DNA of 63,918 nucleotides, counting the filler, from Aduncisulcus paluster (taxonomy: Eukaryota), in assembly GCA_024181965.1 (NCBI GenBank). It is 10 parts of 10 records of this genome, joined end to end, with 100 filler letters (N's around TTAATTAATTAA, not from the genome) between each part and the next. Parts side by side here need not be neighbours in the genome. Positions count along the whole stretch, not along the records: positions 45,214 to 51,035 come from BQXS01011564.1; 9 more parts are not named here. One strand, given 5' to 3'. The notes under the pieces are model-generated. The model worked only from the letters and a program-made list of their open reading frames with translations, was not told the origin of the DNA and searched no databases. The position numbers were made by a program, and so were the translations under genes. This document shows positions 37,141 to 63,918 of this stretch, one piece after another. Within the stretch, counting starts at the first letter, position 1. Every line of letters starts with the position of its first letter.

Positions 37141-40100
37141 ATGTCAACCGATAGTGGAACATCTGGAGATCCCACATATGGTAGTGAAAATAGACTTAAT
37201 TTAAACCACTTAAAACGGCTTCAGGCACTATTTGATGAAGCTGATGCTGATAAGGGTGGTTCACTTGATATTGATGAGTTCTGTGAAGCGTTCAAGGATG
37301 TTCTTGGTAAAGAAATGTCAAAAATAGAAATAGAAAGACTTTTTATGTCAATAGATGCCGATTGTAATGGAGAAGTTGATTGGGATGAATTTGTGAATTA
37401 TTTGATGTTTTCTCGGGAAGCCAAGGAATCTAAAGATACTAACTTTACAAGATTAGCTCCTACTGTTTCGCAAGATGATTTATTTTATCCAATTGAACCC
37501 CATAATCGCCATAAAAGTAATGTGTCCCATACGCTTATTTTTCCAAGTTCTTCGGTCTCAAAAGCACTTCAATCTTCATGTTGGCGGACGGGAATAGCAA
37601 AAGGTCCTGTAATTATATCTACTTCTCCAGATTGCCAGCTTCTGGTGTGGGATTTGGAGAAATTTCGCCCAATTGCGACTATTGATCTGAAAATGGGTGG
37701 TCCTCGTTCCTTATCTAGGGTACCACTCTGGAAATCCAATGGACAACAAGGTCTTCCTGGATCATCGGCCCCCTCCCTGACTTCCCCAACCTCTACTTCA
37801 GATGCACACTTATCTGGTCTTGTAACATCGATGTGCATTGTTTGTGAAGTTCTAAAAATAGGAACAAAAGAGGAAGAGGAGGATGATGAACTTAAACCAC
37901 TCTCTCTGAACTTGTTGTCTGCCAAAGAATTGAGAAAGAAAAATAGGCGTCGTCATGAACTGAAACATGCTCAATTCACATTTTCAGCTGGCAGTAGTGT
38001 TCCATCTACCCGCCCTTCAACTTCTTTCGTCCAATCTATATCCGATCGAGCTCGTGACTCTCTTCTTTTTGATAGTGATGTTGGTGTGAAAATAGGCACA
38101 TTTATTTCTCCTAAAGTGCATTCTAATCCCCTGATTGAGGTCAGATCATCGATTGAAGCAACGGAGGGTGGGAAAGGTGGTGTTGCCGATATATATACTA
38201 CATCTGTTGCCAACAATATTGGAGACAGCATTTCCAACAGTGATATCGACTCTCTGAGTATGTCAGCATATGTGCTTCAGGAAGCCAGGAAAGAAGAGGA
38301 GGAGAGGAGGAAGAGAGAGGAAGAGAAAAGAAGAGAAAAGAAGAGGAGAGAGATGAGAATAATAGCAGAACCAGTGACTACATCCAAGGTACATTGGGCT
38401 GATTTGAAGATAATCAAGGATGAAGAACGTGCAGAATCGGCAGGAAGTGTCCGTTTTAACATTATTCGTTCATCGATGGCTAGCCTGGTTAAAATAAGAC
38501 GTGGGGCGAAAAGAACCGAAGGAGAAGACGGTGAGGAGGAACATACTGCCGGTTCTCCGCCTAAGGCCACGCCATTGGCATTTGCAAGCTTAAGACGGCA
38601 GATTATCCCTAATGCTCGTGCAAGAGCATCACTGCGAAGACACCAATTCGTGAAGAAGGATACCTTTTTGTGGAGTGGAAGTGTTCCCATCCTTCCACCG
38701 GATGCTGCAGCTCTTCCTTCGACTTTTCTTGTGGTAACAGATGTCAGTCGGAGTATACACATGTATGATTTGTCCACCTTCAAATGTGTTGCGTCCGTGT
38801 CTGGGTTCCCCACAACCATCTTATGCACGTATTTTGTACCTTTACACGTTTCCTTGCGTCCTGTGCCTTATTTGATAATGGGTGACATGAATGGGTGTGT
38901 CTACGTGATTGCTCAGCCCAGACGGCTGTTCGTTGCTTCTACGGCTGAAATCAATTCATTGACACCCCAACCAATGCATCGGCAAGCTGGATCCAAAGCC
39001 AAGTCCACTTTTAACTCACAAGCTTTCTTTATTCCAGGTGTGGATGATCGAAAGGAAAAGAAGAGAAAGGAATGTTCAGAACAACATCAAATGCAGGAAA
39101 AGGAAAAGGAAAGAATAAGAACTCCTGAAATTCGGGGTGATCCGAGAGTTTCTTCAGTGAAAACAAGAAGGCCATATCGCATTGGAAAGAATGATAAAAA
39201 GAAATATCTTCCATCTCCATCACAACGTTTACATCAGCTTGAAGCCACACTCGAAAAGGATAAATCCACCAATTCAACCGGAACCTCTTTTACAACTCCA
39301 AAGCCTTCGACTCCATCTGCTCCTCGTCTCCCGGGAATCCATACAAGTACGTCTGGATCACATACAAGTACGTCTGGATCACATACAAGTACATCTGGAT
39401 CACATACAAGTACGTCTGGATCAACTTCGTCTTCGTCTGATTCTCCATTTCTCTCTTCCGAATCACATATATTGCACTTCCCACACGCAGCAGCATCATC
39501 TTTGGCTCCCTATTTTACTGCATTGAAACTTCATGATGGATGGGTAACTGACATCATTGTGCCTACTCATTCACCATCTCTGGCCGTAACATCGTCTTTG
39601 GACGGTACTGTCAAAGTGTGGGAATGGCGAAGTGGAATTGTTCGTCGTGTTTTACGTGGTCATAAAAGTGGAGTTGTTTGTATGGCGTATAGTGCCAAAC
39701 ATCGTGTCATTGTCAGTGGCGGCAGCGATCGACGAGTGTGCATATTCAATCTGCACTTGTCCACACCCGTTGCTGAGATTCCTATTACTGGAAATGTTCA
39801 TAAAATTATTGTTTGCGATGAATTGAATGTATTCTTTGTGCTTTGTGGAGAGAAAGAATTTTATTGTTATGACATTAAGTCACATTCTTTATTGTCTTCA
39901 TGTTTCGATAAAGTATTACGAAGACCCGAAAATGATGTTAAGTCTTTCGATATCGACTTTGACAACAAAAGAATTATATTTTCGTCTTCACGACCCCATG
40001 AAATTAAGATATTTCACACTCAAACACAGGCCCTTATGCTAGAAATGGAGAGCGGTAAAGAGATTGCTGATGAAAGGAAAGAAGAGAACGGAGATCTTGA

Positions 40101-48821: not shown

Positions 48822-48976
48822 TCGTGACATATTATCTTTGCTGATTGGATAATAATTATCCAACAAATATCTTTCTTCTTCTTCTGTTTATAAAAATTTC
48901 AGAACATTTTTATTTTTCGTTTACAAGTTGATTTGCCGTATACTGTACTATACTATAAATCTATGAGCTATTCATT

Positions 48977-49040
48977 TAGCAAAAGATTGCCAAAACCACC
49001 ATGGTCCGACTACCTACAAGTAGGTTATCAGTACCGGTGC
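48977..49040 (-). ncRNA. Candidate Fanzor omegaRNA scaffold
   Basis: Begins 26 nt after the Fanzor stop. CACC-GGU-A-CUGAU-A-ACCUA(CUUG)UAGGU-A-GUCGG-ACC-AU-GGUG long stem, then UGGCAA(UCUU)UUGCUA hairpin. Three G-U pairs form only on the minus strand. Confidence 0.6.
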
Positions 49041-49066
49041 GAAAAAAATAGTAAAAAATAGTATAA

Positions 49067-49525
49067 CTAAGGAGAAAAAGCTTGTAGATCATCTACAGGA
49101 TGATGATCATCCAAAGAACTCGGACGTATGAAAGCTGATGGAAAAGGCTGGCAAAAATGTTTTTTTAGTCCAAGAATAGCAATATTATATGCAGCTGAAT
49201 AGTCCCTATTGCCTTCAAAACCACACTTTCCACACTTTCTCATTCGCCTTTTTTCATCGACCGTTGACAATTCATTGTGGCAACATGGACACAACTTGGA
49301 CGTATGGTATTCATCAACTTCAATGAATATACCCCCTCTTGATTGAACTGTTTGTTTTAATTTGTTCGGAAAGGAAGAGGTACTGGACGTAGATCTATAG
49401 CCTTTATATGTGGCTTTAAATGGTTTATCTCTACCCAGGTGTGCCCGTCCACAGTCCCCATAGCAGACCAACAGCTGTTTTTGTTCTTTTTTGGCCCTCT
49501 TCAGAAGTGTGGAAGCATACTTCAT
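49067..49525 (-). CDS. Fanzor/TnpB-family RNA-guided nuclease, C-terminal fragment (RuvC-II, Zn finger, RuvC-III); RuvC-I absent
   Basis: LLVCYGD...KG..S...IEVDEYHTSKLCPCCH...CGKC....NRDYSAAYNI...P.AF.RP, the Fanzor-type motif series. Confidence 0.85.
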   Translation of the reverse strand: MKYASTLLKRAKKEQKQLLVCYGDCGRAHLGRDKPFKATYKGYRSTSSTSSFPNKLKQTVQSRGGIFIEVDEYHTSKLCPCCHNELSTVDEKRRMRKCGKCGFEGNRDYSAAYNIAILGLKKHFCQPFPSAFIRPSSLDDHHPVDDLQAFSP

Positions 49526-49672
49526 GGGATACTATCTGGCTTGAAGCCACAAGTAATTGTTACTGCCTTGTATTCAGATGATTCGTCTTATTAAATAAAT
49601 AATTAATATTAATAAAATGCATATAAAATTAAACTTAAATAAAAACAGCTTATAATAATGACACATACCCAT
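49522..49672 (-). pseudogene. Spliced N-terminal remnant of the Fanzor gene (exons 49672-49669, 49586-49522; MDESSEYKAVTITCGFKPDSIP*)
   Basis: ATG G|GTATGT...TAAG|AC GAA defines an 82-nt AT-rich intron 49668-49587 with the host donor consensus. The peptide's TGA overlaps the ATG of the RuvC fragment. Confidence 0.55.
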
Positions 49673-49849
49673 TTTTAAAAAAAAGATGGACTTTTTGACG
49701 ACAGAACGAAGAAAAAAATTGTGTAAGTATAGCAAAAGCTATCATATATTTGTAATTTTATTTGACTTTTTCATTTTTACTGTTGATCTCCTGTCATCCT
49801 TGTCAAAGTCATGCTTCTCAGTTTCGGGAAGAAATACAATAATTTCAAT

Positions 49850-51035
49850 ATGGGGAGTACAGATTCAAAATATAAGGGCAATTCCATTGCTTCTTCTGTT
49901 CCTCTTCATCATGTTGAAATCAATTTTGTCAGTACCTCCGCAAGAGAGGTGAAAATAAGAGGATATACAAGAGGAGGAGAATGGAATGATTATAAAATGT
50001 CGAAAATATCGTCAGAAACATTTAAATTGAGTTTAGAATTACCCAAGGGCTTATTTTTTTTATAATTTTATTGTGGACTCCACATCGGATGGGATCTCCA
50101 GTTCATCAACCCACTAAAGATGTCACTCTGAGTGCTCAGCGGGCTGCGACACCTTCCTTGGTGAAGGAAAGGGATAGATCTTCCTCTCATTCCTCTGGAA
50201 GAAGCGTTGATCATCGTCCTCCAAAGGGTAGAGACGAGAGGTTTAGAAGCTCTAGTCGTGCTGATATGATTCCACGAGCCCCCATTCCACTCGAAGAATC
50301 GTTTAATCTCTTCAAAGAGAAATTCAGTCAGGAGATGCCTTCTCTGAGTTGGTTTGTCTCCAAAGAACGAAATACCCCTCAAGGATAGATATAAAGCCGC
50401 CCAAGATTGGTGGAAATATGGTACAGATCGCTGTGATATCATCGCCAAAAAAAAGAAGGCATCAACAACAGAGAAACAAGAGGCTTTGATTTATTTGGCC
50501 TTTTCAATAATGATTGATCCTCTGGGAACATCCCAGCCTTCAAAACACCAAGGAGCTCTTGATCTTTGTGTTGAATTCAGTCAGAACAAGAACCAATCCA
50601 CCTTTTTCCCAGCATTCTTCATTGCAGCTCATTTTCTGGCACGTGAAGGGGCATTTGCTCCTGCCCAAAATGCTTTACATCAATTCTTAATTGTAACTGA
50701 TGTCAGAGTTTCAAGAGGAACTTGCAAAGAAGAAAGGCTTAAAAAAAACAACTCAAGATCCTTTAAAAACCGAATATAAATGCCCATTATATGATAAATT
50801 GCCCAATATTTCGATGCTAAGGATGTGGACATGGTATTTATTTGCTCATATTCTTGCCAGAAACCCCGAAAGTGATCCTACACATGTTGCTATTCCCGTG
50901 AGGCGAGGCATGATGGAAATTTCCGGATTTGATCCTTCTTCAATTCCCAATTTTGCCCAACTTCCTCCCCTTTTGTTGGTATTAGCACGTATGGCTCAAA
51001 GAGTCGGTAATCTTGATGCTACAGAGGAGTTGTAC
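49850..51035 (+). CDS. N-myristoylated CBM48 (AMPK-beta-like glycogen-binding) protein with helical/TPR-like C-terminus; four +1 frameshifts; 3'-partial
   Basis: MGSTDS start; AREVKIRG....W.DYKM....F.LSLELPKG.F.YNFIVD..W pattern of CBM48 once single extra bases are skipped near 50054-50061, ~50086, ~50360 and ~50700. Confidence 0.65.
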
Positions 51036-51137
51036 NNNNNNNNNNNNNNNNNNNNNNNNNNNNNNNNNNNNNNNNNNNNTTAATTAATTAANNNNNNNNN
51101 NNNNNNNNNNNNNNNNNNNNNNNNNNNNNNNNNNNAA

Positions 51138-53705
51138 GGATCCCATTCTCGTCTCAAGACTATCTTTGATGAGTTCACTTCTTTACCCTCATCTGCTGTC
51201 ACATCCGCTCGAGATCTGTTCGCCCTTTGTTTCGAATGTTTGTCCTTGTTCGTGAAGCATAAAGTTACAGAAGACGATGGAACTCCAGATGAGGATGATT
51301 TTGAGGTTATTCTGGATAGTTCTTCCATCCAGGATATGATTGACTCTTTCTTGCCTTCAATGATCCGAGTTGAAGCTATTCTGAGAGTTGAACGAGAAGA
51401 AATGAAAGAAATGGAAGCAAAAGAAGAAGAAGCTGAAACTGCTGAATCTAGAGTGAATTCCATTACAAAGACATTGTTCAGCATTCTCAGGATCTCATCG
51501 AGAAATGTTCTATCTCAATGTATTGCCATTTTCCCCCAGATCTCCACTCTTCTCTCCAAGATGTTTATTCTCGGCCTATTTGAGAAACTTGATGATTCTT
51601 TTGTTAAAGATATCCTCCTAACATGTGGGAATATTGCATTTGCCAAAGACGATCCCACCAAGAACTCCCTTTTATCCATTCTTCTCCCCCATATCTTGCC
51701 ATGGATGAAGAAGTATCCTGATAAGAAGTTCTTTTTCTTGTGGATGATTATCTTGAAGAATATCACTCTTGATAAGGATAATACCTACTCTGATAAAGAT
51801 CGTTCTTCACAACTTTGGTTTGTCTTCCACCCTGTCTTGGCTATTATCAAGGACACTGCTTCCAAAGGTATTACATTTGATGCTGCTGCTGTAATTCGTT
51901 GCTTGGGTTTCCTTGGTAACTTGAGTTGTATTCCTTCCCAAGCCATTGAAGTTCATGATTGCATTAAAGATGGTCTTATTGATAGCTGGTTTGAGATAGT
52001 GAAGAGGAAGAAAAGTGAAGGACTGGATCCTAATTGTTGGGGAGTCAAATACTGGTCCAAACTCATTTCCATGCTATCCACTGTTCCATCTCTTGTCCCC
52101 CAACTCTCTCCCAAATATGATGCCAACATGGAGTGGTGTAAGAAGAATGGAGGATTGCGTGATGATTATACAAGATATCTTGGTATTTGTTATCCTTCTC
52201 TGAAGAAATGGGTTGAATTAGTTGAAGCTATTAAGAAATGTCCTGACTCAGAATCATCCTCAATTCTCTACCATAAACACCGAGGAGATATCCTTTCTGT
52301 CTTCCTTGCATCCCAATCAAAGAGTGAGATTGAAGAGCACAAGAGAGAGATTATTCTTTGTGTTGAGTGTTTAGATCGGTTTGTAAGACATACTATTGCT
52401 GGAAGGGGTATTTGTCTCCCAATACCTGATCTCAACAATCTCATTGACACTTTCATTGATTATCTTTCAAGAATTGAGGAAATATTGGAAGAAGCTGTTG
52501 ATGAAGAGTATTGTAGCATTTGTGTTGATTATTCTTTCGAAGTTGAAGATAAATGGGATTCTTTCATTCCCAAGATCCTTTCCACTTTCCATCGAATTCT
52601 TGAGAGAGGAAGCAAGAAGAAGTTGTCTGATAATATTGTTCTAGATTTATTGATGACTCTCAGAAACATCTCTTCTTCTCCCTCTACTTCCACTCGATCC
52701 TCTATTCTCACCCTTATCAAATCATATGTCAAAGATTGGTTGAGGATGTACAATGATAGTGAATACTATGGAGAATGGATGTATATTTTATCACAGATCA
52801 CCATATTAAGTGATGATAAACACCCCAACAAATCCCTTTGTTCTGAAGTTTGGTCTCTTTCCCACCCTGTTCTTGATGTTGTTAAGAGAGAGTTTGTTGG
52901 GGACAAGATTATTGAGGATGATCATGAATATGTTTTGCGATTCTTCTCTAACTTATGTTGTGATCCTTCACATGCTCTTGTAATCTATGACAATATTAAG
53001 CATCTTCTTGATGGGTGGTTTGAAGTTATGAAACAACATGAATGGGGAATCAAATACTGGTTCAATCTCATTTCCATGCTATCCACTGTTCCATCTCTTG
53101 TCCCTCAACTATCTCCCAAATATGATGCCAACATGGAGTGGTGCAAAGGAGAATCGTATTGTTCAACTCAATTCTATAATCAATACCTTTCCAACATTTC
53201 CTCCTTCGTATCTTCTTCATATCTCTCTTCAACTCTTTTCCATTCTGTTCCAATGGTTTCATTTCTACCATCAATTGAGACATCTTTGTGTCCTGAGAAA
53301 GATGGATATTCATACGCTTCCCATGTATGTTCTGTTATGAATCTGCATAAAACTATTCCACATCGCAAAAACAAAATCTCTTGCTATCACGATATTATCA
53401 GTGGAAAAGAAATGCAAATTCAACATGTTCTTAAACGTGATGGATCGAGTTCTCAAGATATCCTCACACACTCTTCTCTCATCCAATACACTTCTCCTCC
53501 CCAACACATGCTTGTTAAGATGCCATTTGATGATGAGAGATCCTTGAGACAATCTGTGTATGATCTGATTGAACGCACAGGTGGAGGTGTTGAAGTGATG
53601 TTTGAACAGGGATCATTATGTTGTTCGTTTGAAGAATACGATCAAGAAGCATGGAGGAAAAGAATGGAAGATATTGAAAAAGAAATGAAAGAGGAGGTCA
53701 AATAG
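51138..53705 (+). CDS. ARM/HEAT-like repeat protein of an expanded family; 5'-partial
   Basis: Long ORF with internal duplication (LWFVFHPVL...NL.C.PS.A....L.D.WFE..K...G.KYW..LISMLSTVPSLVPQLSPKYDANMEWCK twice); near-identical paralogue at 58093-60580. Confidence 0.85.
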   Translation, partial: GSHSRLKTIFDEFTSLPSSAVTSARDLFALCFECLSLFVKHKVTEDDGTPDEDDFEVILDSSSIQDMIDSFLPSMIRVEAILRVEREEMKEMEAKEEEAETAESRVNSITKTLFSILRISSRNVLSQCIAIFPQISTLLSKMFILGLFEKLDDSFVKDILLTCGNIAFAKDDPTKNSLLSILLPHILPWMKKYPDKKFFFLWMIILKNITLDKDNTYSDKDRSSQLWFVFHPVLAIIKDTASKGITFDAAAVIRCLGFLGNLSCIPSQAIEVHDCIKDGLIDSWFEIVKRKKSEGLDPNCWGVKYWSKLISMLSTVPSLVPQLSPKYDANMEWCKKNGGLRDDYTRYLGICYPSLKKWVELVEAIKKCPDSESSSILYHKHRGDILSVFLASQSKSEIEEHKREIILCVECLDRFVRHTIAGRGICLPIPDLNNLIDTFIDYLSRIEEILEEAVDEEYCSICVDYSFEVEDKWDSFIPKILSTFHRILERGSKKKLSDNIVLDLLMTLRNISSSPSTSTRSSILTLIKSYVKDWLRMYNDSEYYGEWMYILSQITILSDDKHPNKSLCSEVWSLSHPVLDVVKREFVGDKIIEDDHEYVLRFFSNLCCDPSHALVIYDNIKHLLDGWFEVMKQHEWGIKYWFNLISMLSTVPSLVPQLSPKYDANMEWCKGESYCSTQFYNQYLSNISSFVSSSYLSSTLFHSVPMVSFLPSIETSLCPEKDGYSYASHVCSVMNLHKTIPHRKNKISCYHDIISGKEMQIQHVLKRDGSSSQDILTHSSLIQYTSPPQHMLVKMPFDDERSLRQSVYDLIERTGGGVEVMFEQGSLCCSFEEYDQEAWRKRMEDIEKEMKEEVK

Positions 53706-53980
53706 AAAAGAGGAAGAAGGCAATCAAAAGAAGGAAAACATTGTCAAATTGTTTAAAGTTTAAACTAATGGGATAATCTTGTTAGAGCGGAGAGAGAGAG
53801 AGAGAGAGAGGGAGATCATACAATCAAAAATGAATAATGAATAATGGTCTTCTTTAAAATAGAGATTGCTGAATAACGTTGAGTAAGTTTATTCTCGACA
53901 ATTCTTTCGCGATAAAATGATTCATTAGAGTTGCCAAATTCGGTTATCAGTTGTATATACAAGTTATAAAATCACAAATA

Positions 53981-54270
53981 AAATCATCACGTCTATTTTT
54001 AGAAATTCTATTTTTAGAACAACAACTTCAATATTGTCGAGTCGGGATCAGAATCAACAATATCAGACATATTTGATACAGTTCTGATCCATTCCATTCA
54101 AAATAGGGGGAGGAAAACTGGAGATATCACTTCCAACAAGACATATGTGGAATTATGGATGATATGAGGGAAGAGAATATGAGAAATAACGAAGATATAA
54201 CGATCAAACGAATCTTTTCAATTTCTAAAATCTAAAAATAGATGTTCTAAAAATAGAACATGATTGATTT
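53981..54270. mobile_element. Candidate MITE: ~40-bp imperfect terminal inverted repeats built of doubled TCTATTTTTAGA
   Basis: 53981-54018 AAATCATCACGTCTATTTTTAGAAATTCTATTTTTAGA versus the reverse complement of 54231-54270, AAATCAATCATGTTCTATTTTTAGAACATCTATTTTTAGA; non-coding interior. Confidence 0.5.
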
Positions 54271-54602
54271 CAAATGTTTACAGATGGTCTGAAAAGGGGT
54301 TATAAACATCGGAATATTGAACAGAATGTGTAATTCTTGTAATTCTTTGCTTACAATCATCTCGACATGCCCTGACTCTTATTTCTTGCCTGGGCCAGTT
54401 TCATTGTTTTTATTTGCAATGAAAGCAGCTTTATCTCCAAGCGGAGTTTGGAAGATAGTTAAACACAAAGGTGACGAAAGCTCATTACCTCAGGAAAGGT
54501 GTGGAAGGAGCAGTAGTCAATAGAAAGTCCAAGAAAGATCCCGCTAAGTGATCAGGAAGTTAGTTCTCATCGAGAATAGGGGAATTTCCGAATAGGGGGG
54601 GT

Positions 54603-54728
54603 ATTTCGAAATTATTTTTAATAAAGAAATTACTCCATCAATAAACTTTATTGGTCAGCAATTTCGAAATTAGTCGGCAATTTCGAAATTGGTTCGAATT
54701 TTGAAATTGGTCCGCCAGATGTGAAATT
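54603..54728. repeat. ~19-bp tandem repeats containing the palindrome AATTTCGAAATT
   Basis: TTGGTCAGCAATTTCGAAA / TTAGTCGGCAATTTCGAAA / TTGGTTCGAATTTTGAAA / degenerate fourth unit, plus an isolated ATTTCGAAAT at 54603. Confidence 0.75.
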
Positions 54729-54863
54729 TCATTGATTTTTCCGTAATTGATTAATATCGTAATTGTATTATCGTAAAATATGATATTTTCTTAATTAAAT
54801 ACAGAAACAATGAATATTTATTGTTTAATATCTCGTAATTATGTTACAATGCTTGAACTCGAT

Positions 54864-55006
54864 CTAATCATCTTCTTCTTCGGTTGGACGTGAATCACTG
54901 GTTAAAACGGCACTTTGAGAGAGCAAAGATAAGTTTGGTGAGTGTTCAGCTGGTGCATCTTGACCTTCCTCGTCTTCTTCCTCGTCTTCTTCTACCCTCC
55001 TATTAG
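54864..55006 (-). CDS. 3' end of an unidentified acidic-tailed protein (fragment)
   Basis: Open frame NRRVEEDEEEDEEGQDAPAEHSPNLSLLSQSAVLTSDSRPTEEEDD* from the contig edge. Confidence 0.5.
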
Positions 55007-55106
55007 NNNNNNNNNNNNNNNNNNNNNNNNNNNNNNNNNNNNNNNNNNNNTTAATTAATTAANNNNNNNNNNNNNNNNNNNNNNNNNNNNNNNNNNNNNN
55101 NNNNNN

Positions 55107-55588
55107 CCGGTACCGGCGGTGATGTTCACAACGGCAAGCTTGGCACGACGCTCGGGGGAGAACTTGAACTTGTACAAGGAACGACCGGTCTCTCCAGGGT
55201 ACTCAAGAAGACAGCAGATGGACTTGGCAGCATCGGTTGGAGATCCACCTCCGATGGAACACACAAGGAATGAGTCGTGGGAATACTTGGGACGGAATAG
55301 CTCTGTGCACTCATCAATGGCCGCGGTCGTAGGGTTGGTGGTGATTTTGTTGTACATGATGTGCTCAATGCCACGCTCGGTCAAGGCGGCCTCAATCACA
55401 TCCCAGGCACCACAGCGACGGTAAGCAGACCTTGAACACACAAACCCGACACATTTGGGTTTCTCGGCATCAAGAATGTCGCCAAACTTGTTCAGAGCAC
55501 CAACTCCAAAGAAGCATGATTGTTTGGTAGTACCATACTTGAGAGTGATGACGTTGTGGATATCAATGGTATCGTAGTAATCGGACAT
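55107..55588 (-). CDS. Iron-containing (group III) alcohol dehydrogenase, prokaryote-type; 3'-partial
   Basis: FFGVGAL.K, AY.RCGAWDVI..AL...GI....Y.K...NPT...IDE, IGGGSPTDAAKS...LLEYP.....LY.FKF.P, AVVNITAGT motifs; GC-richer codon usage than neighbours. Confidence 0.93.
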
Positions 55589-56127
55589 AGTTGCGATTTA
55601 AGGTTTACGTTGGGACAAAAAAAATGCTTTCGAACAAAGAAATCGTTGAAAGAAAAATGGTCAAACAAACTCTATTTGACGAATAGAGGATCATCATCAG
55701 CGTTCAGACGGAACATGGAGAGGTACAAACATTTGTACATCAGAATTGTATCAAGAAGATGCTAGAATAAAAGGATATCACGCATGAAATGGAACAATAT
55801 TGACCGAGACACAACGAAAAGGGAGAACTTTTATCATCATCCATCAAGAGCACATATATTGCAGAGGATATGAATGATATCTTGTTGGTAAGTCTTGCGT
55901 GAGACATAATCCAGAAATATTAGATTTCAGTCTTTCCTCAATAATGCTAGAGAGCATGGTTTTGTGTTTTTGAGAGTCGAGATTTCATATCATGTCCAAA
56001 ACGGGTTATATTCGGCTTAAACTGGGATGATTGAAAAGGTAGAAAGGTCTGTACAATGCAAATTCGAGGTTTAAAATGGAATTCAAGCTCAAATAAAGAG
56101 AATAAAAAAATCAAAAAAATTAAAAAA

Positions 56128-56234
56128 CGGCAACTGACTGGAGTCGAACCAATACTTTCCACACAAATCTAAGAGTTTTTAATCAACTGATTTAAACGCT
56201 GTAGATGGATGTTCTTCCATTGAACTACTGTACC
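56128..56234 (-). tRNA. Intron-containing tRNA-like gene or pseudogene, apparent anticodon ACA (Cys)
   Basis: D-arm GTTC-AATGGAA-GAAC, anticodon stem TCCAT/GTGGA with loop CT-ACA-G, 35-nt insert after position 37 (56198-56164), T-arm ATTGG-TTCGACT-CCAGT, then a T6 terminator. The acceptor stem is imperfect. Confidence 0.55.
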
Positions 56235-56530
56235 GGGTTTGGTAATGCAAATAAATAGGACGAACTTGGATGATTCATAGGGAATGCTGTTACAAAATCA
56301 GGTTATCAAACAACCCGTATTTGTGTTTTATAGAGGAATAACTCATTTTCCAAAACGAATCAGCATATGATTGCTCAAATTGTTGAAAAGATGAATTTAT
56401 TATTCCATCATATAATCTTACTAATTTATAGATTCCAAACGAAAAATAATTGAAAGGTGGAACGGAAAGTGACGTGAATATGCACACACAATGTGAAAAA
56501 GAAGGAGAATCGAGACTGTCTGGGAAATTC

Positions 56531-57145
56531 TCACTTATTCCAAGATCCAACTTTCATCCTATTTAATCCAGAAGTAACAGCACCAAGGTAGGCCTTTCTT
56601 GGAAGATCACACTCAGCGATGTAGAAGGGGGCATGAGGATTGATTCGACGAACACATTCGGCAACACTATCGGTCATATCTTGCAAAATAGATTTGGCAT
56701 GGTCAGGGGGGACAATATCAAGAGTTGTGAATGTACGAATTGCTTGCTTGGTGGCAAATGGGTTGGAAGCACTTCTAGTTCCAGCTTCAGTTCCCTCACG
56801 AGCGTGGATACGAATACCGTACTTTTCAGGAGTTTTAGACACAACTCTAGAAATTGTAAATTTACCATATTTCAGAAAACCTCTTTCGATATGAGTAATA
56901 TCAATGAGATCGGTTTTTTCAGATCGTTCGATAAATTTGGTTTCAAAATTGTATTTAATTCTATGGAGAGACTTATTTGAGAGGATTAAAACACGCTCTT
57001 GTTCCATATCCCATTGATTGATCGAAATTACAACCCACCCTTTCACAAACCGCTCATCTTTCAACAAATGATCACGACATCTAGTAATGGCCTCCACTTG
57101 GGCCGCATATGTTTCATGGATTGCAACAGAAGGTCTGATGGACAT
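56531..57145 (-). CDS. hSac2-domain protein (TPRG1/TPRG1L-like)
   Basis: GWVVISINQWDMEQERVLILSNKSLHRIKYNF....I......L.DI..IE.G matches the hSac2 domain pattern. Confidence 0.8.
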   Translation of the reverse strand: MSIRPSVAIHETYAAQVEAITRCRDHLLKDERFVKGWVVISINQWDMEQERVLILSNKSLHRIKYNFETKFIERSEKTDLIDITHIERGFLKYGKFTISRVVSKTPEKYGIRIHAREGTEAGTRSASNPFATKQAIRTFTTLDIVPPDHAKSILQDMTDSVAECVRRINPHAPFYIAECDLPRKAYLGAVTSGLNRMKVGSWNK

Positions 57146-57324
57146 TTTGTATTGTTAAAGTTGTTGTTATGTCGAAAAAAAAAAACTAGTAAAAAAAATG
57201 TGGATGAAGGCAGCCTAATTTGCATTGTGACAATTTTTTTGAAATAATAAGAGCAAATTATTGCTAAAGAAAATAAAATACGCCAATATTTTCGATATCT
57301 ACATCTGAAAACTCGGATTAGCCG

Positions 57325-57428
57325 AGCTTTGTGACATTTGAAACGCGGATGCATTTATTAGGGAAGGGGAGATACTAAAAAGACAGAAATAAAAAGAGAA
57401 AAGAAAGGCATAGCTTTGTGACATTTGA
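57325..57428. repeat. 17-bp perfect direct repeat AGCTTTGTGACATTTGA (57325-57341, 57412-57428)
   Basis: Two identical copies 70 nt apart upstream of the hSac2 gene. Confidence 0.8.
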
Positions 57429-57614
57429 TCCTGTACCTCCTTAAACAAACCAAATTAAATCGATTAAAACCGGTTTAATATTAGTTTAGGAAACAGACTT
57501 GCTATTCCAACAAATATTTATTCACAGGTATTGGAATGCCTTTCTCAAAGGCAAAGAAACTATATCATTGATTCAAATAAAAAAAAACACAATTAATTCC
57601 GGCCAAATAATATC

Positions 57615-57992
57615 TTATTTCTTCGAGCGTTTGTTTTTCCTCGATTTATCCTTCCGATCCTCACCAATTTCTTTTTCAACCGGATCAGAATGTCTTCTTT
57701 TCCCCGATGTCTTTTCTTTTTTCTCTTTCTTTCCTTTCTCCTTTTTCTCTTTCTTTTCTTTCCTCTTCTTCTTTCCTTTCTTTTTCTCTTCATGTTCCTC
57801 ATCCTCTTCAAATTCATCATCAACATCGTCACCAGCTGCCGGTTTGACTTGTCGTAGGTCAATTTCATCTGGAATATATACGTCATCATCATCCTCATCT
57901 GCATTATCTTCCTCATCGTATCGCATCTCCTCTTCCTCTTCTTCGGGAGCACCCAACAGAACCTTGACTTTTTCCTTGGAAAATAGCATGGG
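57615..57992 (-). CDS. 3' end of a protein with acidic then Lys-rich tail (fragment)
   Basis: Open frame from the contig edge to TAA; D/E tracts followed by KKKGKKKRKEKKEKKEK. Confidence 0.7.
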   Translation of the reverse strand, partial: PMLFSKEKVKVLLGAPEEEEEEMRYDEEDNADEDDDDVYIPDEIDLRQVKPAAGDDVDDEFEEDEEHEEKKKGKKKRKEKKEKKEKGKKEKKEKTSGKRRHSDPVEKEIGEDRKDKSRKNKRSKK

Positions 57993-58092
57993 NNNNNNNN
58001 NNNNNNNNNNNNNNNNNNNNNNNNNNNNNNNNNNNNTTAATTAATTAANNNNNNNNNNNNNNNNNNNNNNNNNNNNNNNNNNNNNNNNNNNN

Positions 58093-60580
58093 TCCTCCAT
58101 GCTTCTTGATCGTATTCTTCAAACGAACAACATAATGATCCCTGTTCAAACATCACTTCAACACCTCCACCTGTGTGTTCAATCAGATCATACACAGATT
58201 GTCTCAAGGATCTCTCATCATCAAATGGCATCTTAACAAGCATGTGTTGGGGAGAAGAAGTGTATTGGATGAGAGAAGAGTGTGTGAGGATATCTTGAGA
58301 ACTCGATCCATCACGTTTAAGAACATGTTGGATTTGCATTTCTTTTCCACTGATAATATCATGATAGCAAGAGATTTTGTCTTTGCGATGTGGAATAGTT
58401 TTATGCAGATTCATAACAGAACATACATGGGAAGCGTATGAATATCCATCTTTCTCAGGACACAAAGATGTCTCAATTGATGTGAGAAATGAAACCATTG
58501 GAACAGAATGGAAAAGAGTTGAAGAGAGATATGAAGAAGATACGAAGGAGGAAATGTTGGAAAGGTATTGGTTATAGATTTGAGTTGAACAATACCATTC
58601 TTCTTTGCACCGTAGCATCTTGGCATCATATTTGGGAGATAGATGAGGGACAAGAGATGGAACAGTGGATAGCATGGAAATGAGATTGAACCAGTATTTG
58701 ATTCCCCATTCATGTTGTTTCATCTTCATAACTTCAAACCACTCATCAAGAAGATGCTTTACATTATCATAGATTACAAGAGCATGTGAAGGATCACAAC
58801 ACAAGTTAGAGAAGAATCGCAAACATTCTTCATGATCATTCTCAACAATCCTATCCCCAACAAACTCTCTCTTAACAACATCAAGAACAGGGTGGAAAAG
58901 AGGCCAAACTTCAGAACAAAGGGATTTGTTGGGAGATTCGTTATCACGTGAGGTGGTGCCAAATGATAGAATATACATCCATTGTCCATAGCACTTACTA
59001 TCATTGTACATCCTCAACCAATCTTTGACATATGGTTTGATAAGGGTGAGAATAGAGGATCGAGTGGAAGTAGAGGGAGAAGAAGAGGAATAAAAGGAGA
59101 TGTTTTTGAGAGTCATCAATAAATTTAGAACAATATTATCAGACAACTTCTTCTTGCTTCCTCTCTCAAGAATTCGATGGAAAGTGGAAAGGATCTTGGG
59201 AATGAAAGAATCCCATTTATCTTCAACTTCGAAAGAATAATCAACACAAATGCTACAATACTCTTCATAAACAGCTTCTTCCAATATTTCCTCCACTCTT
59301 GAAAGATGATCAATGAAAGTGTCAATGAGATTGTTGAAATCGGGTATTGGGAGGAAGATACTCCTTCCAGCAATATCATGTCTTACAAACCATCTTAAAC
59401 ACTCAACACAAAGAACAATCTCTCTGTTGTGCTCTTCTATCTCACTCTTTGATTGGGATGCAAGGAAGACAGAAAGGATATCTTCTCGATGTTTGTGGTA
59501 GAGAATTGAGGATGATTCTGAGTCAGGAGATTTCTTAATAGCTTCAACTAATCCAGACCATTTTTTCAGAGAAGGATAACAATTACCAAGATATCTTGCA
59601 TAATCATTACGCAATCCTCCATTCTTCTTGCACCACTCCATGTTGGCATCATATTTGGGAGAGAGTTGAAGAATAAGAGATGGAACAGTGGATAGCATGG
59701 AAATGAGTCTGGACCAGTATTTGACTCCCTGACTATTAGCATGCTCTCCTTCACTTTTCTTCCTCTTCACTATCTCAAACCAGCTATCAAGAAGACCATC
59801 TTTAATGCAAGCATGAACTTCAATGGCTTGGGAAGGAATACAACTCAAGTTACCAAAGAATAGTAAACAACGAATTACAGCATCATCATCAAATGTAATA
59901 CCTTTGGAAGCAGTGTCCTTGATAATAGCCAAGACAGGGTGGAAGACAAACCAAAGTTGTGAGGAACGATCTTTATCAGAACCGATGTTATCCTTATCAA
60001 CAGTGATATTCTTCAAGATATTCATCCACAAGAAAAAGAACTTCTTATCAGGATACTTCTTCATCCATGGCAAGATATGGGGGAGAAGAATGGATAAAAG
60101 GGAGTTCTTGGTGGGATCATCTTTGGCAAATGCAATATTCCTACATGTTAGGATATCCTCAACAAAAGAATCCTCAAGTTTCTCAGATAGGCCGAGAATA
60201 AACATCTTGGAGAGAAGAGTGGAGATCTGGGGGAAAATGGCAATACATTGAGATAAGACATTTCTCGATGAGATACTGAGAATGCTGAACAATGTCTTTG
60301 TAATGGAATTCACTCTAGATTCAGCAGTTTCAGCTCCTTCTTCTTCTTCTTCCATTTCTTTCATTTCTTCTCGTTCAACTCTCAGAATAGCTTCAACTCG
60401 GATCATTGAAGGCAAGAAAGAGTCAATCATATCCTGGATGGAAGAACTATCCAGAATAACCTCAAAATCATCCTCATCTGGAGTTCCATCGTCTTTTGTA
60501 ACTTTATGCTTCACGAACAAGGACAAACATTCGAAACAAAGGGCGAACAGATCTCGAGCGGAGGGGACAGCAGATGAGGG
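58093..60580 (-). CDS. ARM/HEAT-like repeat protein, close paralogue of 51138-53705; partial at both ends
   Basis: Colinear and highly similar to the 51138 ORF along its whole length. Confidence 0.85.
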
Positions 60581-60681
60581 NNNNNNNNNNNNNNNNNNNN
60601 NNNNNNNNNNNNNNNNNNNNNNNNTTAATTAATTAANNNNNNNNNNNNNNNNNNNNNNNNNNNNNNNNNNNNNNNNNNNNC

Positions 60682-63006
60682 GAAGGTAAATGCGATGGCA
60701 CTGATGACACAGATGGTACTGGTGGCACTGATGATATACAATTATCCATATCGAAACTACATGGAAGTAGAAGAATATCTAGAACTGCAGCTGGAGGTAA
60801 GGAAAGCAGAAAAGATGAAGAGGAGGAAGAGCAGATATCCAGTCGTCAACATTCAACTCATTCTATTCTTTCTCATTCCAAAAATAGCAATATATCAACA
60901 ACATCCTCATTATTACGCACTCATCCTGAACAATATAGTGCCACTCTCTCACATTCCTCTTCTTCTTTATCTTCCTCTTCCTCTTCCTCTTCCTCTTCTT
61001 CCTCTTCTTCCTCTTCTTCTTATAACCTTCCATCTGCTATGTATTCTTCCTCTATTTCCTCCCTATCTTCTTCCAGGGGACCATATTGTCCCAATACTCT
61101 CCCTGTAACTTCCTCTTCTTCCTCCTCTCTGGCTAGATTCAAGAGTATTCTGGCCACGATCGTCAGGAAATACACTGAGGTGCTCTCTGTAGTAGAAGTT
61201 GAAGAGGAGAGGAGGAAACGTGATGAATGTCAGACCAGTGTCTTGGCTACTTCCTCTTCTTCCTCTTCTTCCTCTTCTTCCTCTTCTTCTTCGACAAATG
61301 AATCATTGTCAAATCTTTCAGCACAAGGAACAACGATGCGAGCTGGTGACACTCATCAACATGAAGGTGATCCATCAACACATCTTCAAGAACAGCCATC
61401 CTCTTCCAGTTCCTCTTCTTGTGGTGTTTCTCATATGCTTCGTGGGACGGTAGGATTACCGACAATTATCGGTTCAACCGATATAAAACCATCCTCCTCT
61501 TCAGATCTGGGAGATATCAGTAATAGTTCTGGCAATGCCCTTGTTGCTGATAGTATTGTTGATAGTACCAGTCGTGACTGTGTTCATGTAGATCATACAA
61601 AACAATATGAAGAATTATGCATGTTATTTGCATCTAATCCCGTTCTAAAGCAACTTATTCAAGATATTATTAAGCAAGTTAATCGAGGTTGTCCAATGTT
61701 TTTGGTTGAGGAACATGTAGGAAGTGATCTTGCAACGTTTGTCCTTCTATCGATTTTACAGGCCTCAGATTGGATGTTACAACAAGAATCAAGTATGTTG
61801 AGTGGTGTCAATGGTAGTGTTGGTGGTAGTATGGGTTCATCCAGTAGTATAATTGGTGATAGAGGTAGTGGATCTGGATCTTTGGGTAGTAGCAGTATTT
61901 CTGAAGGAGGCTCTGGAAACAGCAAGGAAATGCCACATTTATTTGAGAAATGTTCTATTGTTATCGACCGACGTGATATGCTATTGTTAATCCCAAAGAC
62001 TGGTGTGTTGTTCCTTCAGGTGCAGTCTTACCTCATCCATCTATTTTCATGCCTAACAACTCAACTACATTCTTCTCACAGGTCTAAATATAGAACTGTT
62101 GCTCAATTCATTCATATATGTTTCGATGTGTTACCCTCTTCACCTTTTGCTTCCTTATTCCAGAACTTCACTCGCACACATGGAAGCAAACGAGCTCTGA
62201 TGCGTGACCTGTCTGAATTGCAGGAAGAAGTCAGCGGTCGTAAGAAAAGCAGTATCAAGGGAAGTGATGCCATTGTGCATAAAAGTTATCGTCTCCAGGC
62301 TAGAACATTGCCTTATATGCAGGCTACTACAAGGAAGCACCCGTCATCCACTCATCTACCGGCTGCAAACATTAGTTCTCATCCACAAACTATCCCCCAT
62401 CATCATTCTTCCTCTTCTGTCATGTCAGTTCCTAGTATTCATGGCAGTAATATTTCTTCTTCTTCCTCTTCCTCCTCCTCCTCCTCCTCTTCTTCTTCTT
62501 CTTCTTCTTCTTCTTCTTCTTCTTCTTCTTCTTCTTCTTCTTGTTCTTCAAAACCACCAACAGGAATGCCTGGTTCTGGTATTTCTTCCTCTTCCTCTTC
62601 TTCTTCCTCTTCGTCTGGTGTCATTGGTCAGGGATGCAGTGTGGGTATGCCATCACATCTGCCGGTTTCTTCTTCGGTTCCAGGCGGTAGTATTGGCAGT
62701 GTTGTCGGCGGTTCCACAGTACAAAGCGGCTCCACCTCATCTTCAGCCGGTAGTGTTGCCGGTTCTATCGGCAGTGCCGGTGCTCATGGCAGTGCCGGTG
62801 CTCATGGCAGTGCCGGTGCTCATGGCAGTGCTCATCCTCACTCACATCAAGCATTCATATCCTCTGGAATGCAGTATATTACTCCCCAACAACAACAACA
62901 ACAGGGTGTTCCGAGACAATATTCCTCTCTCGATTTGCACAGGATGACAGAGGCAGCCAACAGAGCAGCTTCTTCGATAAACAAACGAAAAGGGAAGAAA
63001 AAATGA
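60682..63006 (+). CDS. Hypothetical Ser/Gly-rich low-complexity protein; 5'-partial
   Basis: Frame open from 60682 into ORF 61039-63006; poly-Ser tracts flank a helical core. Confidence 0.75.
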   Translation, partial: EGKCDGTDDTDGTGGTDDIQLSISKLHGSRRISRTAAGGKESRKDEEEEEQISSRQHSTHSILSHSKNSNISTTSSLLRTHPEQYSATLSHSSSSLSSSSSSSSSSSSSSSSSYNLPSAMYSSSISSLSSSRGPYCPNTLPVTSSSSSSLARFKSILATIVRKYTEVLSVVEVEEERRKRDECQTSVLATSSSSSSSSSSSSSSTNESLSNLSAQGTTMRAGDTHQHEGDPSTHLQEQPSSSSSSSCGVSHMLRGTVGLPTIIGSTDIKPSSSSDLGDISNSSGNALVADSIVDSTSRDCVHVDHTKQYEELCMLFASNPVLKQLIQDIIKQVNRGCPMFLVEEHVGSDLATFVLLSILQASDWMLQQESSMLSGVNGSVGGSMGSSSSIIGDRGSGSGSLGSSSISEGGSGNSKEMPHLFEKCSIVIDRRDMLLLIPKTGVLFLQVQSYLIHLFSCLTTQLHSSHRSKYRTVAQFIHICFDVLPSSPFASLFQNFTRTHGSKRALMRDLSELQEEVSGRKKSSIKGSDAIVHKSYRLQARTLPYMQATTRKHPSSTHLPAANISSHPQTIPHHHSSSSVMSVPSIHGSNISSSSSSSSSSSSSSSSSSSSSSSSSSSSSCSSKPPTGMPGSGISSSSSSSSSSSGVIGQGCSVGMPSHLPVSSSVPGGSIGSVVGGSTVQSGSTSSSAGSVAGSIGSAGAHGSAGAHGSAGAHGSAHPHSHQAFISSGMQYITPQQQQQQGVPRQYSSLDLHRMTEAANRAASSINKRKGKKK
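62453..62541 (+). repeat. (TCT/TCC)n poly-Ser microsatellite
   Basis: About 29 consecutive Ser codons. Confidence 0.9.
62770..62831 (+). repeat. Coding 18-bp tandem repeat x3.4 (GSAGAH)
   Basis: GGCAGTGCCGGTGCTCAT three times plus a partial unit. Confidence 0.9.
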
Positions 63007-63715
63007 GTGAATCTAAACATTTAAAGTTGTGTATTATGTTTAATCATTATATCGTTTTTAATCCCTGATTTAGTTTGGTATTTGGTTGTAATCATTATGT
63101 AGTGTTCCAAGAAGACACGCACAGAAGACATGCACAGAAGAATCGGAGATAAGAGTTGAATATATGCCACAGTGCCCGGTTTGATGATATGTTTGACTTG
63201 AACAATGTGCAATTTGTGTGCAGATATGTTCCATGATAATCGAATCATTCCAATTCTCATGGAACTCCACGTTGTCACTGTTGATTACATTGACAGAGAA
63301 TGCATCTTCGATTTTTCCCTTGATGATGCCAATTTGTCGCTGTTCTTTTCTCCTTCAGTATTCTACGATAGGTGCAAACAACGATAGTTTCTTGGACTCG
63401 AATGATGGAGTATATTGTGATTGTGCGATTAATTTATGATTAATTAGTTCCATGTTTTTACTTCATGAATGTATGTTTTTATGACAACAATAATAATAAT
63501 ACAGAATAGAGAACAATTCCAAACAACGCTCCAAAGTTCAATAATAATGTCTCATCGTGAAGGAGAGTGTGCAACTTGTTCAACCATCAACAATCAACCA
63601 TCAACAATCAACAATCAACTTCAAGCTTGAAATGAACTCTTCTCTCAGTTGTTCCATTCACTTGATGGCATTAAGAATAAAAATAAAATCTTACATCAGA
63701 ATCTTTCCACATCAC

Positions 63716-63918
63716 TCACTGACTCTGATCCCAACCTTCCTCATGCTCAACACCAGCAACACCACATCTCATTCCTTCAATGGTTCCAACAGAGCCACCA
63801 TACTTCTTGCGTTGCTCACGGATAATGGCTTCAATGCTTGGACACTCATAGTCTTCGCCAATCGTGGGAAGGAAAGGTTTGATGCATTGGACTTTCACAC
63901 GAGCTTCATGCACACTCA
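63716..63918 (-). CDS. 3' end of a gene entering from the right edge, possibly a lineage-expanded protein kinase tail
   Basis: SVHEARVKVQCIKPFLPTIGEDYECPSIEAII...* resembles the helix after kinase subdomain XI; no catalytic motifs lie inside the window. Confidence 0.5.
   Translation of the reverse strand, partial: SVHEARVKVQCIKPFLPTIGEDYECPSIEAIIREQRKKYGGSVGTIEGMRCGVAGVEHEEGWDQSQ

Follow-up and report, generated by a model that had tools for sequence, protein, structure and literature searches.

Architecture of the locus

The window (the whole 63,918-nt stretch of Aduncisulcus paluster DNA that was analyzed) carries on its (−) strand a Fanzor fragment of a family that we call A, closed on one side by a terminal hairpin and adjoined on the other by a mosaic of pieces from other loci (Table 1). 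The fragment lacks the RuvC-I aspartate and corresponds to approximately the C-terminal quarter of the protein. Positions 48975-49533 are identical to contig G000:C321 at 556 of 559 nt, and both C321 and C811 diverge from the window copy at 49533; most of the ORF is missing between 49533 and 49534. Upstream of this junction, the spliced reading MDESSEYKAVTITCGFKP looks by eye like ...NYVTLKCGIRR of a sister family, B, and the position of the predicted intron matches that of family B's 96-nt intron. We regard this locus as a dead DNA copy of a family-A Fanzor that has undergone internal deletion and has one defined end.

Table 1. Coordinates of the window copy, its candidate repeats and its flanking pieces.
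Feature	Position	Strand	Description
AGCTATTCATTTA flank	48966..48978	+	Left copy of candidate degenerate TSD; aligns 11/13 with 49737-49748
Terminal hairpin, element 3′ (right) end	48975..48994	−	8-bp stem with one G-U pair; all Watson-Crick in G000:C321
Right 9-mer copy	48977..48985	+	Two variable nt (TA) plus 7-nt tip GCAAAAG
Right-end module, probable omegaRNA scaffold	48975..49066	−	Predicted long stem plus terminal hairpin; common to non-coding relatives
Family-A Fanzor C-terminal fragment	49067..49533	−	PF07282, E 1.2e-15; VDEYHTSK, C4 zinc finger, RD
Fanzor exon 2 start	49534..49586	−	Out-of-frame junction to C-terminal piece
ATG 49672 and retained 82-nt GT-AG intron (49668-49587)	49587..49672	−	Predicted from sequence
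Upstream region	49673..49740	−	~73% like family B; true left end of B ~337 bp farther out
Left 9-mer copy	49730..49738	+	In weak 5-bp hairpin 49729-49742; homology to B fades here
AGCTATCATATA	49737..49748	+	Right copy of candidate degenerate TSD; overlaps 9-mer
61-bp piece	49753..49813	+	95% identical to region upstream of gene on G000:C12304
G000:C12504 gene, two pieces (49820-50077, 50094-50368)	49820..50368	+	16 nt of filler between the pieces
G000:C19 gene copy	50369..51018	+	99.5% identical, without first codons; extends to assembly gap

Another piece of the C12504 gene lies inside an element on C12511 that has the same tip and is flanked by a target-site duplication (TSD). A "CBM48-like" label given to this gene by eye was dropped, Pfam being without a match. 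We considered an assembly chimera; one X1 contig spans both junction 49753 and junction 49820, its depth being that of a single copy (1161, compared with 1345 for the host flank and ~2500-2700 for the stretch common to C321). Evidence from X1 contigs extends to only 30 letters on one side at the tip junction and to only 29 at the 49533 junction, slightly short of what counts as a bridge; X1 and X2 represent one sample, possibly the source of the assembly. The empty site reconstructed in the original prediction did not turn up: neither an empty allele nor its joint was found in contigs of three runs, contigs that drop rare variants.

The 9-mer and its two hairpins

The original prediction held that TAGCAAAAG occurs at both ends of the element in direct orientation, each time as part of a hairpin. 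Both copies are indeed present on the (+) strand, and a third was found in the window at 37595, giving 3 occurrences compared with 0.51 expected, a number reached in 0/100 shuffles for a word that was picked post hoc. Both hairpins are real as well. The right one has an A-C mismatch when read on the (+) strand, the same position being a G-U pair on the (−), i.e., gene-sense, strand, where the hairpin closes a predicted two-stem fold; for the last 71 nt of the right end this fold reaches −25.7 kcal/mol (z −4.19, 0/200 shuffles). The left one (ATAGC-AAAA-GCTAT) is weak (−5.0 kcal/mol; z −2.3 on the minus and −1.6 on the plus strand) and is absent from family B in the alignment with B. As had been claimed, the window copy is without terminal inverted repeats (TIRs): no inverted repeat linked its two ends among the longest 25 of 156 pairs, and inverted matches of at least 8 nt between 48940-49070 and 49500-51036 were limited to four A/T runs.

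The left 9-mer lies ~60 nt upstream of the ATG, where BLAST homology with family B ends (49740), in a region that is single-copy in the assembly and in X1 contigs. A match of 9 nt or longer linking the tip zone to the body of the element arose in 99/1000 and 34/1000 Markov simulations, 278/2432 random window pairs and 5/119 tiled windows, and these four controls put such a match anywhere in the element at 3-11%; when confined to a fixed 25-nt zone, a 9-nt match was seen in only 31 of 14482. The word itself is near chance, whereas its position beats chance. Between 49000 and 63918, no repeat of at least 9 nt abuts the tip beyond the 9-mer and an overlapping A-rich word.

A second, imperfect repeat (AGCTATTCATTTA / AGCTATCATATA; 11/13 aligned, one gap, one mismatch) brackets 48979-49736 and is possibly a degenerate TSD of 12-13 bp, the best candidate in the window copy. 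Among AT-rich words, 99 of 6929 (1.4%) match equally well, and the last 4 nt of 48966-48978 are also readable as the outer arm of the hairpin. A degenerate TSD needs two edits, although the window copy differs from C321 at just 3 of 559 sites. The left flank (48942-48958) also has ACTGTACTA and ATACTATA, words that are present in family-C tips; this may be chance.

Protein identity and other mobile-element genes

The Fanzor protein motif is given in PMC3627910 as D-X(125,275)-[TS]-[TS]-X-X-C4 zinc finger-X(5,50)-RD. It is present in the family B protein of C12276 (D381, TS565, first Cys 569 and RD598), and the window fragment retains TS, C4 and RD, the first D being lost. According to PMC13565253, the RuvC-II glutamate stands ~6 residues ahead of the zinc finger; in our alignment VDEYHTSKLC is invariant across seven sequences, with E562 compared with C569. 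In a profile search of the PDB, the best match was L79, a TnpB-like chain of mimivirus type (E 4.6e-5, aligned over the C-terminal part alone), and a single-sequence search gave nothing. These searches did not separate Fanzor1 from Fanzor2, and our Fanzor1 label is taken from the TIR/TSD context rather than from a tree. Fanzors of at least three additional, more divergent families were also noted (L023/L024, L032-L034 and L035/L036), with 35-55% identity to the window fragment.

A MULE transposase is encoded by an 809-codon ORF with one PF10551 match (G000:C9722:16034-18460); among the best candidates scored, nothing within 15 kb of this locus is in common with the ends of family B. Overlapping fragments of a Helitron RepHel gene lie on C12407, C9315, C941, C12145, C7757 and C12002. 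They have no sequence in common with the ends of families A and C as far as these short contigs reach, the RepHel ends being unassembled. By eye, the short contigs L190-L192 resemble bacterial DNA, with ORFs similar to NADH dehydrogenase and cysteine desulfurase, which suggests contamination in the assembly.

Tips and duplications of families A and C across the genome

Pattern GCAAAAGATTGCCAAA gave 63 matches in the genome compared with 13 in the control. The nine with at most one mismatch were taken up (the remaining 54 have two), and those on C11481 and C12440 were dropped as chance. Seven loci carry the tip, and the bases outside it vary: the two nucleotides before it are TA in the window only, TG in C321, C12282, C11398, C46 and C12759 (whose tip reads GCAAAAT) and TT in C12511. 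Since TG or TT precedes the tip elsewhere (TA in 0/6 other tip-bearing copies), the 9-mer fails both as a constant end and as a TSD of host origin. For the TA of the window copy there are two readings: target sequence, or one transition after which the stem still pairs as G-U.

The proposal that the ends are element-encoded stands for the right end, where homology between copies ends within a few bases of 48975-48979, supporting a terminus that is both element-encoded and hairpin-embedded; the left copy was not confirmed as an end. Families A, B and C all keep a terminal hairpin, its sequence differing between them; the tip in particular differs between A and C while the hairpin persists, and GCAAAAG is missing from family C and from three A-type tips. 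Across 14 aligned right ends, helix 1 is 91% paired with six one-sided changes, covariation did not exceed that of shuffles, and Rfam had no match for the module. Pairing within the RNA scaffold had also been taken to favor an element-encoded end. In Fanzor1, however, the TSD is stated to become part of the RNA scaffold or of the TAM (Yoon 2023; 2026 review), so scaffold pairing alone is no proof of such an end.

For the left side, a BLAST search with 49535-49830 returned the sequence itself, two 96-bp intron pieces, family B and a C12304 piece (8/8 matches), and a 22-nt pattern with three mismatches returned itself and three unrelated matches. Because no second family-A left arm was found, the left 9-mer is not demonstrable as an element end, and its zone aligns to the interior of family B. 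Outside this genome, pattern matches in metagenomes (394) and viruses (68) yielded no confirmed relative.

The right-end module of families A and C was found at 16 other loci, and at five of these an exact repeat of 8-15 bp directly adjoins the tip: C12511 (11-bp duplication, 1863-bp insert), C11398 (15 bp, 91-bp insert), C46 (L184; 14 bp, 12-bp insert consisting of just the hairpin tip), C11832 (8 bp, 719-bp insert) and C11301 (10-11 bp, 931-bp insert), the far copy lying where family homology ends in the last two. No duplication is seen at the other 11, of which seven leave the contig within 0.5-1.6 kb and four have long flanks without a repeat. A T-rich tetramer precedes the duplication in only two of the five. 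The far ends of copies with A/C tips are scattered, with fragments of other loci frequently adjoining them; the copies are anchored at the 3′ end and variable at the far end.

Such a pattern bears on two alternatives. The hallmarks of target-primed reverse transcription (TPRT) are 3′ anchoring, 5′ truncation and duplications of 8-15 bp, all of which are present here, and a non-LTR reverse transcriptase primed on a hairpin-ended Fanzor/omegaRNA transcript would leave 3′-anchored, 5′-truncated copies with variable TSDs. Moreover, RT- and RLE-like fragments adjoin family A/C pieces on C11075, C811, C12534 and C12556 (by eye). We nevertheless consider a retrocopy very unlikely: the intron is kept, which speaks for a DNA template; a poly(A) tail is lacking, and tip and duplication are separated by no more than 3 extra nt; and the host-gene scraps are opposite in sense and are 5′ parts of genes.

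Alternatively, intact family A may have 7-nt direct termini (CTTTTGC), being Replitron- or Crypton-like and moved in trans by an HUH enzyme or a tyrosine recombinase. The window copy would then have its left end at 49738, with TAAATGA as a "fuzzy" end derived from the parent flank and ATAG as a short TSD. This explanation alone accounts for both the 9-mer and the adjacent imperfect repeat, it places the left 9-mer at the point where homology to B stops, and the layout fits that of Replitron-1 insertions as described in PMC10288648 (direct repeat, hairpin at the right end, fuzzy end, variable TSD and a left end after RG). However, direct termini are seen in one copy only, GCAAAAG being at the far end of none of the five relatives with a flanking duplication; the tips without this word, noted above, and the interior position of the left 9-mer zone in family B also count against them, and no Rep or recombinase ORF adjoins the copies (ORFs of 21 loci). 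We therefore find direct termini doubtful.

At two loci (C9982 and C11832; L109:2565-2600 and L182:662-700), the tip is replaced by a perfect fold-back round one central base, the scar sequences being TTTTGGCCA-C-TGGCCAAAA and GATGCA-C-TGCATC. Since fold-back and templated-insertion scars exist in this genome, the variable duplications may be the product of host repair without involvement of Fanzor.

A sister family with terminal inverted repeats

A tblastn-type search gave 18 matches, including ORFs of ~645 codons with Fanzor motif spacing. Near-full-length family B ORFs with all three RuvC motifs are located on C12276, C12577 and C12704 (L029, L030 and L026; 645, 651 and 489 codons, respectively). 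Six coding B copies end sharply at ...TCGCAAATTGAATTTGTTC, and the left end, which lies beyond the equivalent of 49740, starts with GGATGAATT. The TIRs are 19 nt long and imperfect (13/19 matching). Exact flanking repeats were found in eight of the ten two-ended copies (9, 10, 8, 15, 10, 13, 10 and 9 nt), and of the remaining two, one has a repeat of 6 nt and one has none; the cases with 13- and 15-nt repeats have eroded left ends. The modal TSD is 9 bp, with most at 9-10 bp. Judging by these ends, family B is a MuDR-like TIR element. The broader statement of the original prediction, by which Fanzor termini in this DNA would not be TIRs, is not confirmed, nor are direct-repeat termini supported as a family rule.

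Were the insertion simply that of a MULE, with TAGCAAAAG serving as its 9-bp TSD and a TAM ending in GCTA, it would agree with family B in its modal TSD length. Yet other copies show seven of the nine bases to be part of the element, so the 9-mer is not a MULE-type 9-bp TSD, and no TIR lies inside the repeat. The candidate TAM presumed that the 9-mer is the target; the 5′ flanks of B and A/C insertions have no common motif from which a TAM might be deduced, and those of B show nothing TAM-like. This interpretation is largely refuted and in our view hardly tenable.

Family B also carries other DNA: the copies on C12687, C12585 and C10934 hold a Fanzor tail together with host-gene pieces in opposite orientation. 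The non-coding copies of A, B and C have one internal body in common and differ in their right-end modules; on C9982, an A-type tip is combined with the left end of family B. Two family-A tips have pieces of the C12504 gene next to them. The non-coding body, with repeated GC-rich stems CTCCCGCCTGAAAA...GAAACGTCAGGTAGGGGA, bears three different right-end modules (loci L119, L125, L128, L129, L134, L159, L104, L182, L109, L108 and L176-L181); by eye, the stems recall a degenerate hammerhead without the CUGANGA core. Part of this C12504 gene (G000:C12504:10394-12700; L105) is tandemly triplicated ~2 kb outside a B left end.

The window stretch could accordingly be a Pack-MULE-type relic that once had B-like TIR ends, in which the Fanzor pieces and the host scraps at 49753-51018 were the cargo of one element, the left end has been lost or is hidden in a gap, and both short repeats are chance. 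The TIRs and 8-15-bp repeats of family B, its copies with host-gene pieces, the body common to A/C and B, the mixed element on C9982, the C12504 pieces beside A tips and the existence of a MULE transposase ORF (C9722) all fit this explanation, and the flank TGAAT of the window copy is similar to the terminal TTGAATTTGTTC of family B. On the other hand, the window is without any B-type left end, the only tip-abutting repeats of at least 9 nt in 49000-63918 are the two named above, the 12-nt TIR tail of B is on none of the other A/C tips, the C9722 locus is without B end sequence among the best candidates scored in 15 kb, and both coincidences (31/14482 and 99/6929) would be required. A relic of this kind is thus possible, though on the unlikely side.

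A model for the origin of the window copy

Our preferred reading, to which we give about an even chance, is that an internally deleted Fanzor was inserted by a one-ended paste of the repair type, its joints showing microhomology, possibly together with the degenerate 12-13-bp TSD. Copying would begin at the terminal hairpin as one-ended synthesis, the template would switch on short matches, and the product would be sealed into a staggered break, giving duplications of variable length (8-15 bp). The 9-mer would then be a junction feature: its right copy would consist of the 7-nt tip and two variable nucleotides, and its left copy would be the gene's native upstream sequence, where copying halted or switched, probably aided by microhomology. 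The break could have been made by Fanzor, by a MULE transposase or by a nuclease of an HUH element or retroelement, or none of these may have been involved. The Fanzor lineage of the window copy also travels as family B, the MuDR-like TIR element. Against such a paste stands the rarity of a 9-nt match at a fixed position, which microhomology would explain only in part; the 11 loci at which no duplication is seen, the two edits and the 1.4% background of the candidate TSD, and the T-rich tetramer at just two of five duplications also weigh against it.

Microhomology-mediated end joining gives templated insertions, i.e., multi-template mosaics with short fillers and microhomology joints. The copies described here are like templated insertions in their multi-template mosaic, short fillers, microhomology at joints and fold-back scars (C9982 and C11832), but differ in that the same hairpin tip is reused as the start, which suggests an element-specific step.

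More speculatively, one Fanzor lineage may move in two modes, as the MuDR-like TIR family B and as the TIR-less, hairpin-anchored A/C, the duplications of the latter arising from Fanzor's staggered cut; we think this rather unlikely, and the same low confidence covers, jointly with it, a swapping of right-end modules on the common non-coding body. In the boldest form, intact family A would have 7-nt direct termini and the window copy would be a Replitron-1-like, guide-directed insertion whose parent tail resembled the target, a scenario that we hold, jointly with Fanzor-made duplications, to be improbable to a similar degree.

Comparison with known systems

Two kinds of Fanzor element described by Bao and Jurka (2013; PMC3627910) are relevant here: CRe-1/2/3 of Chlamydomonas reinhardtii, Fanzor1-bearing non-autonomous Helitron2 elements with "one-ended" insertions and TSDs of 7-19 bp, and Fanzor elements of the MuDR type, whose TSDs are 9 bp long. 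As far as they are described there, the CRe elements resemble families A and C in their intact hairpin 3′ end, variable 5′ truncation, internal deletions, extra sequence on the 5′ side and duplication length (7-19 bp compared with 8-15 bp here). In contrast, neither Helitron2 ends (ATIRs) nor a Helitron link is seen here (a 3′ hairpin is present, and inverted matches of at least 8 nt to the 3′ region are A/T runs only), the TTTT or T-rich target of the CRe type is found in just 2/5 cases, and copies are far fewer. On one-ended Helitron2 insertions of Fanzor, our literature search found PMC3627910 only.

The MuDR-type Fanzor1 comparators are ROr-4, PBl-3 as well as MCi-4 (PMC3627910), and Spu-1 with its ghost loci (Saito 2023; PMC10432273). 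Going by these accounts, family B is like them in being Fanzor-only, with short TIRs, mostly 9-10-bp TSDs and many ORF-less copies that keep the right-end module, and unlike them in its short imperfect TIRs (13/19), in having no autonomous MuDR matched to it and in carrying host-gene pieces; the window copy of family A differs in being without a TIR.

Replitron-1 and Replitron-N1 (Craig 2023; PMC10288648) have a short direct repeat, a right-end hairpin, a variable TSD and a fuzzy end, features that the window copy may be read as having too, the fuzzy end being a possible one. Their repeat is, by that account, constant in 50 insertions, whereas here it occurs at both ends once; the parts of PMC10288648 on which we draw do not describe Replitrons as Fanzor carriers, and here no Rep ORF lies beside the copies. 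The same paper speculates that Fanzor causes odd TSDs. We found no literature on Fanzor with Pack-MULE, on Fanzor in metamonads or on transposition in Aduncisulcus, although survey supplements may list loci.

Implications

Overall, the original prediction described a sequence arrangement that is real and interpreted it mostly wrongly, and the window copy itself is debris. The guess of a GCTA TAM is set aside as unsupported. To judge from PMC3627910, both patterns seen here, one-ended and MuDR-type, have already been described for Fanzor, and the families reported here are new members. The boundaries of a Fanzor family are now defined in a poorly sampled protist lineage, and family B, with exact ends, near-full-length ORFs and varied flanks, offers a ready substrate for omegaRNA and TAM assays. 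If it is true that Fanzor cutting makes one-ended copies with variable TSDs, a problem posed both by Bao and Jurka (2013) and by Craig (2023), namely why elements bearing Fanzor produce duplications of this kind, would become testable in a second lineage. Should the two-mode reading hold, A. paluster would provide a second lineage, far from Chlamydomonas, that ties Fanzor to non-canonical TSDs.
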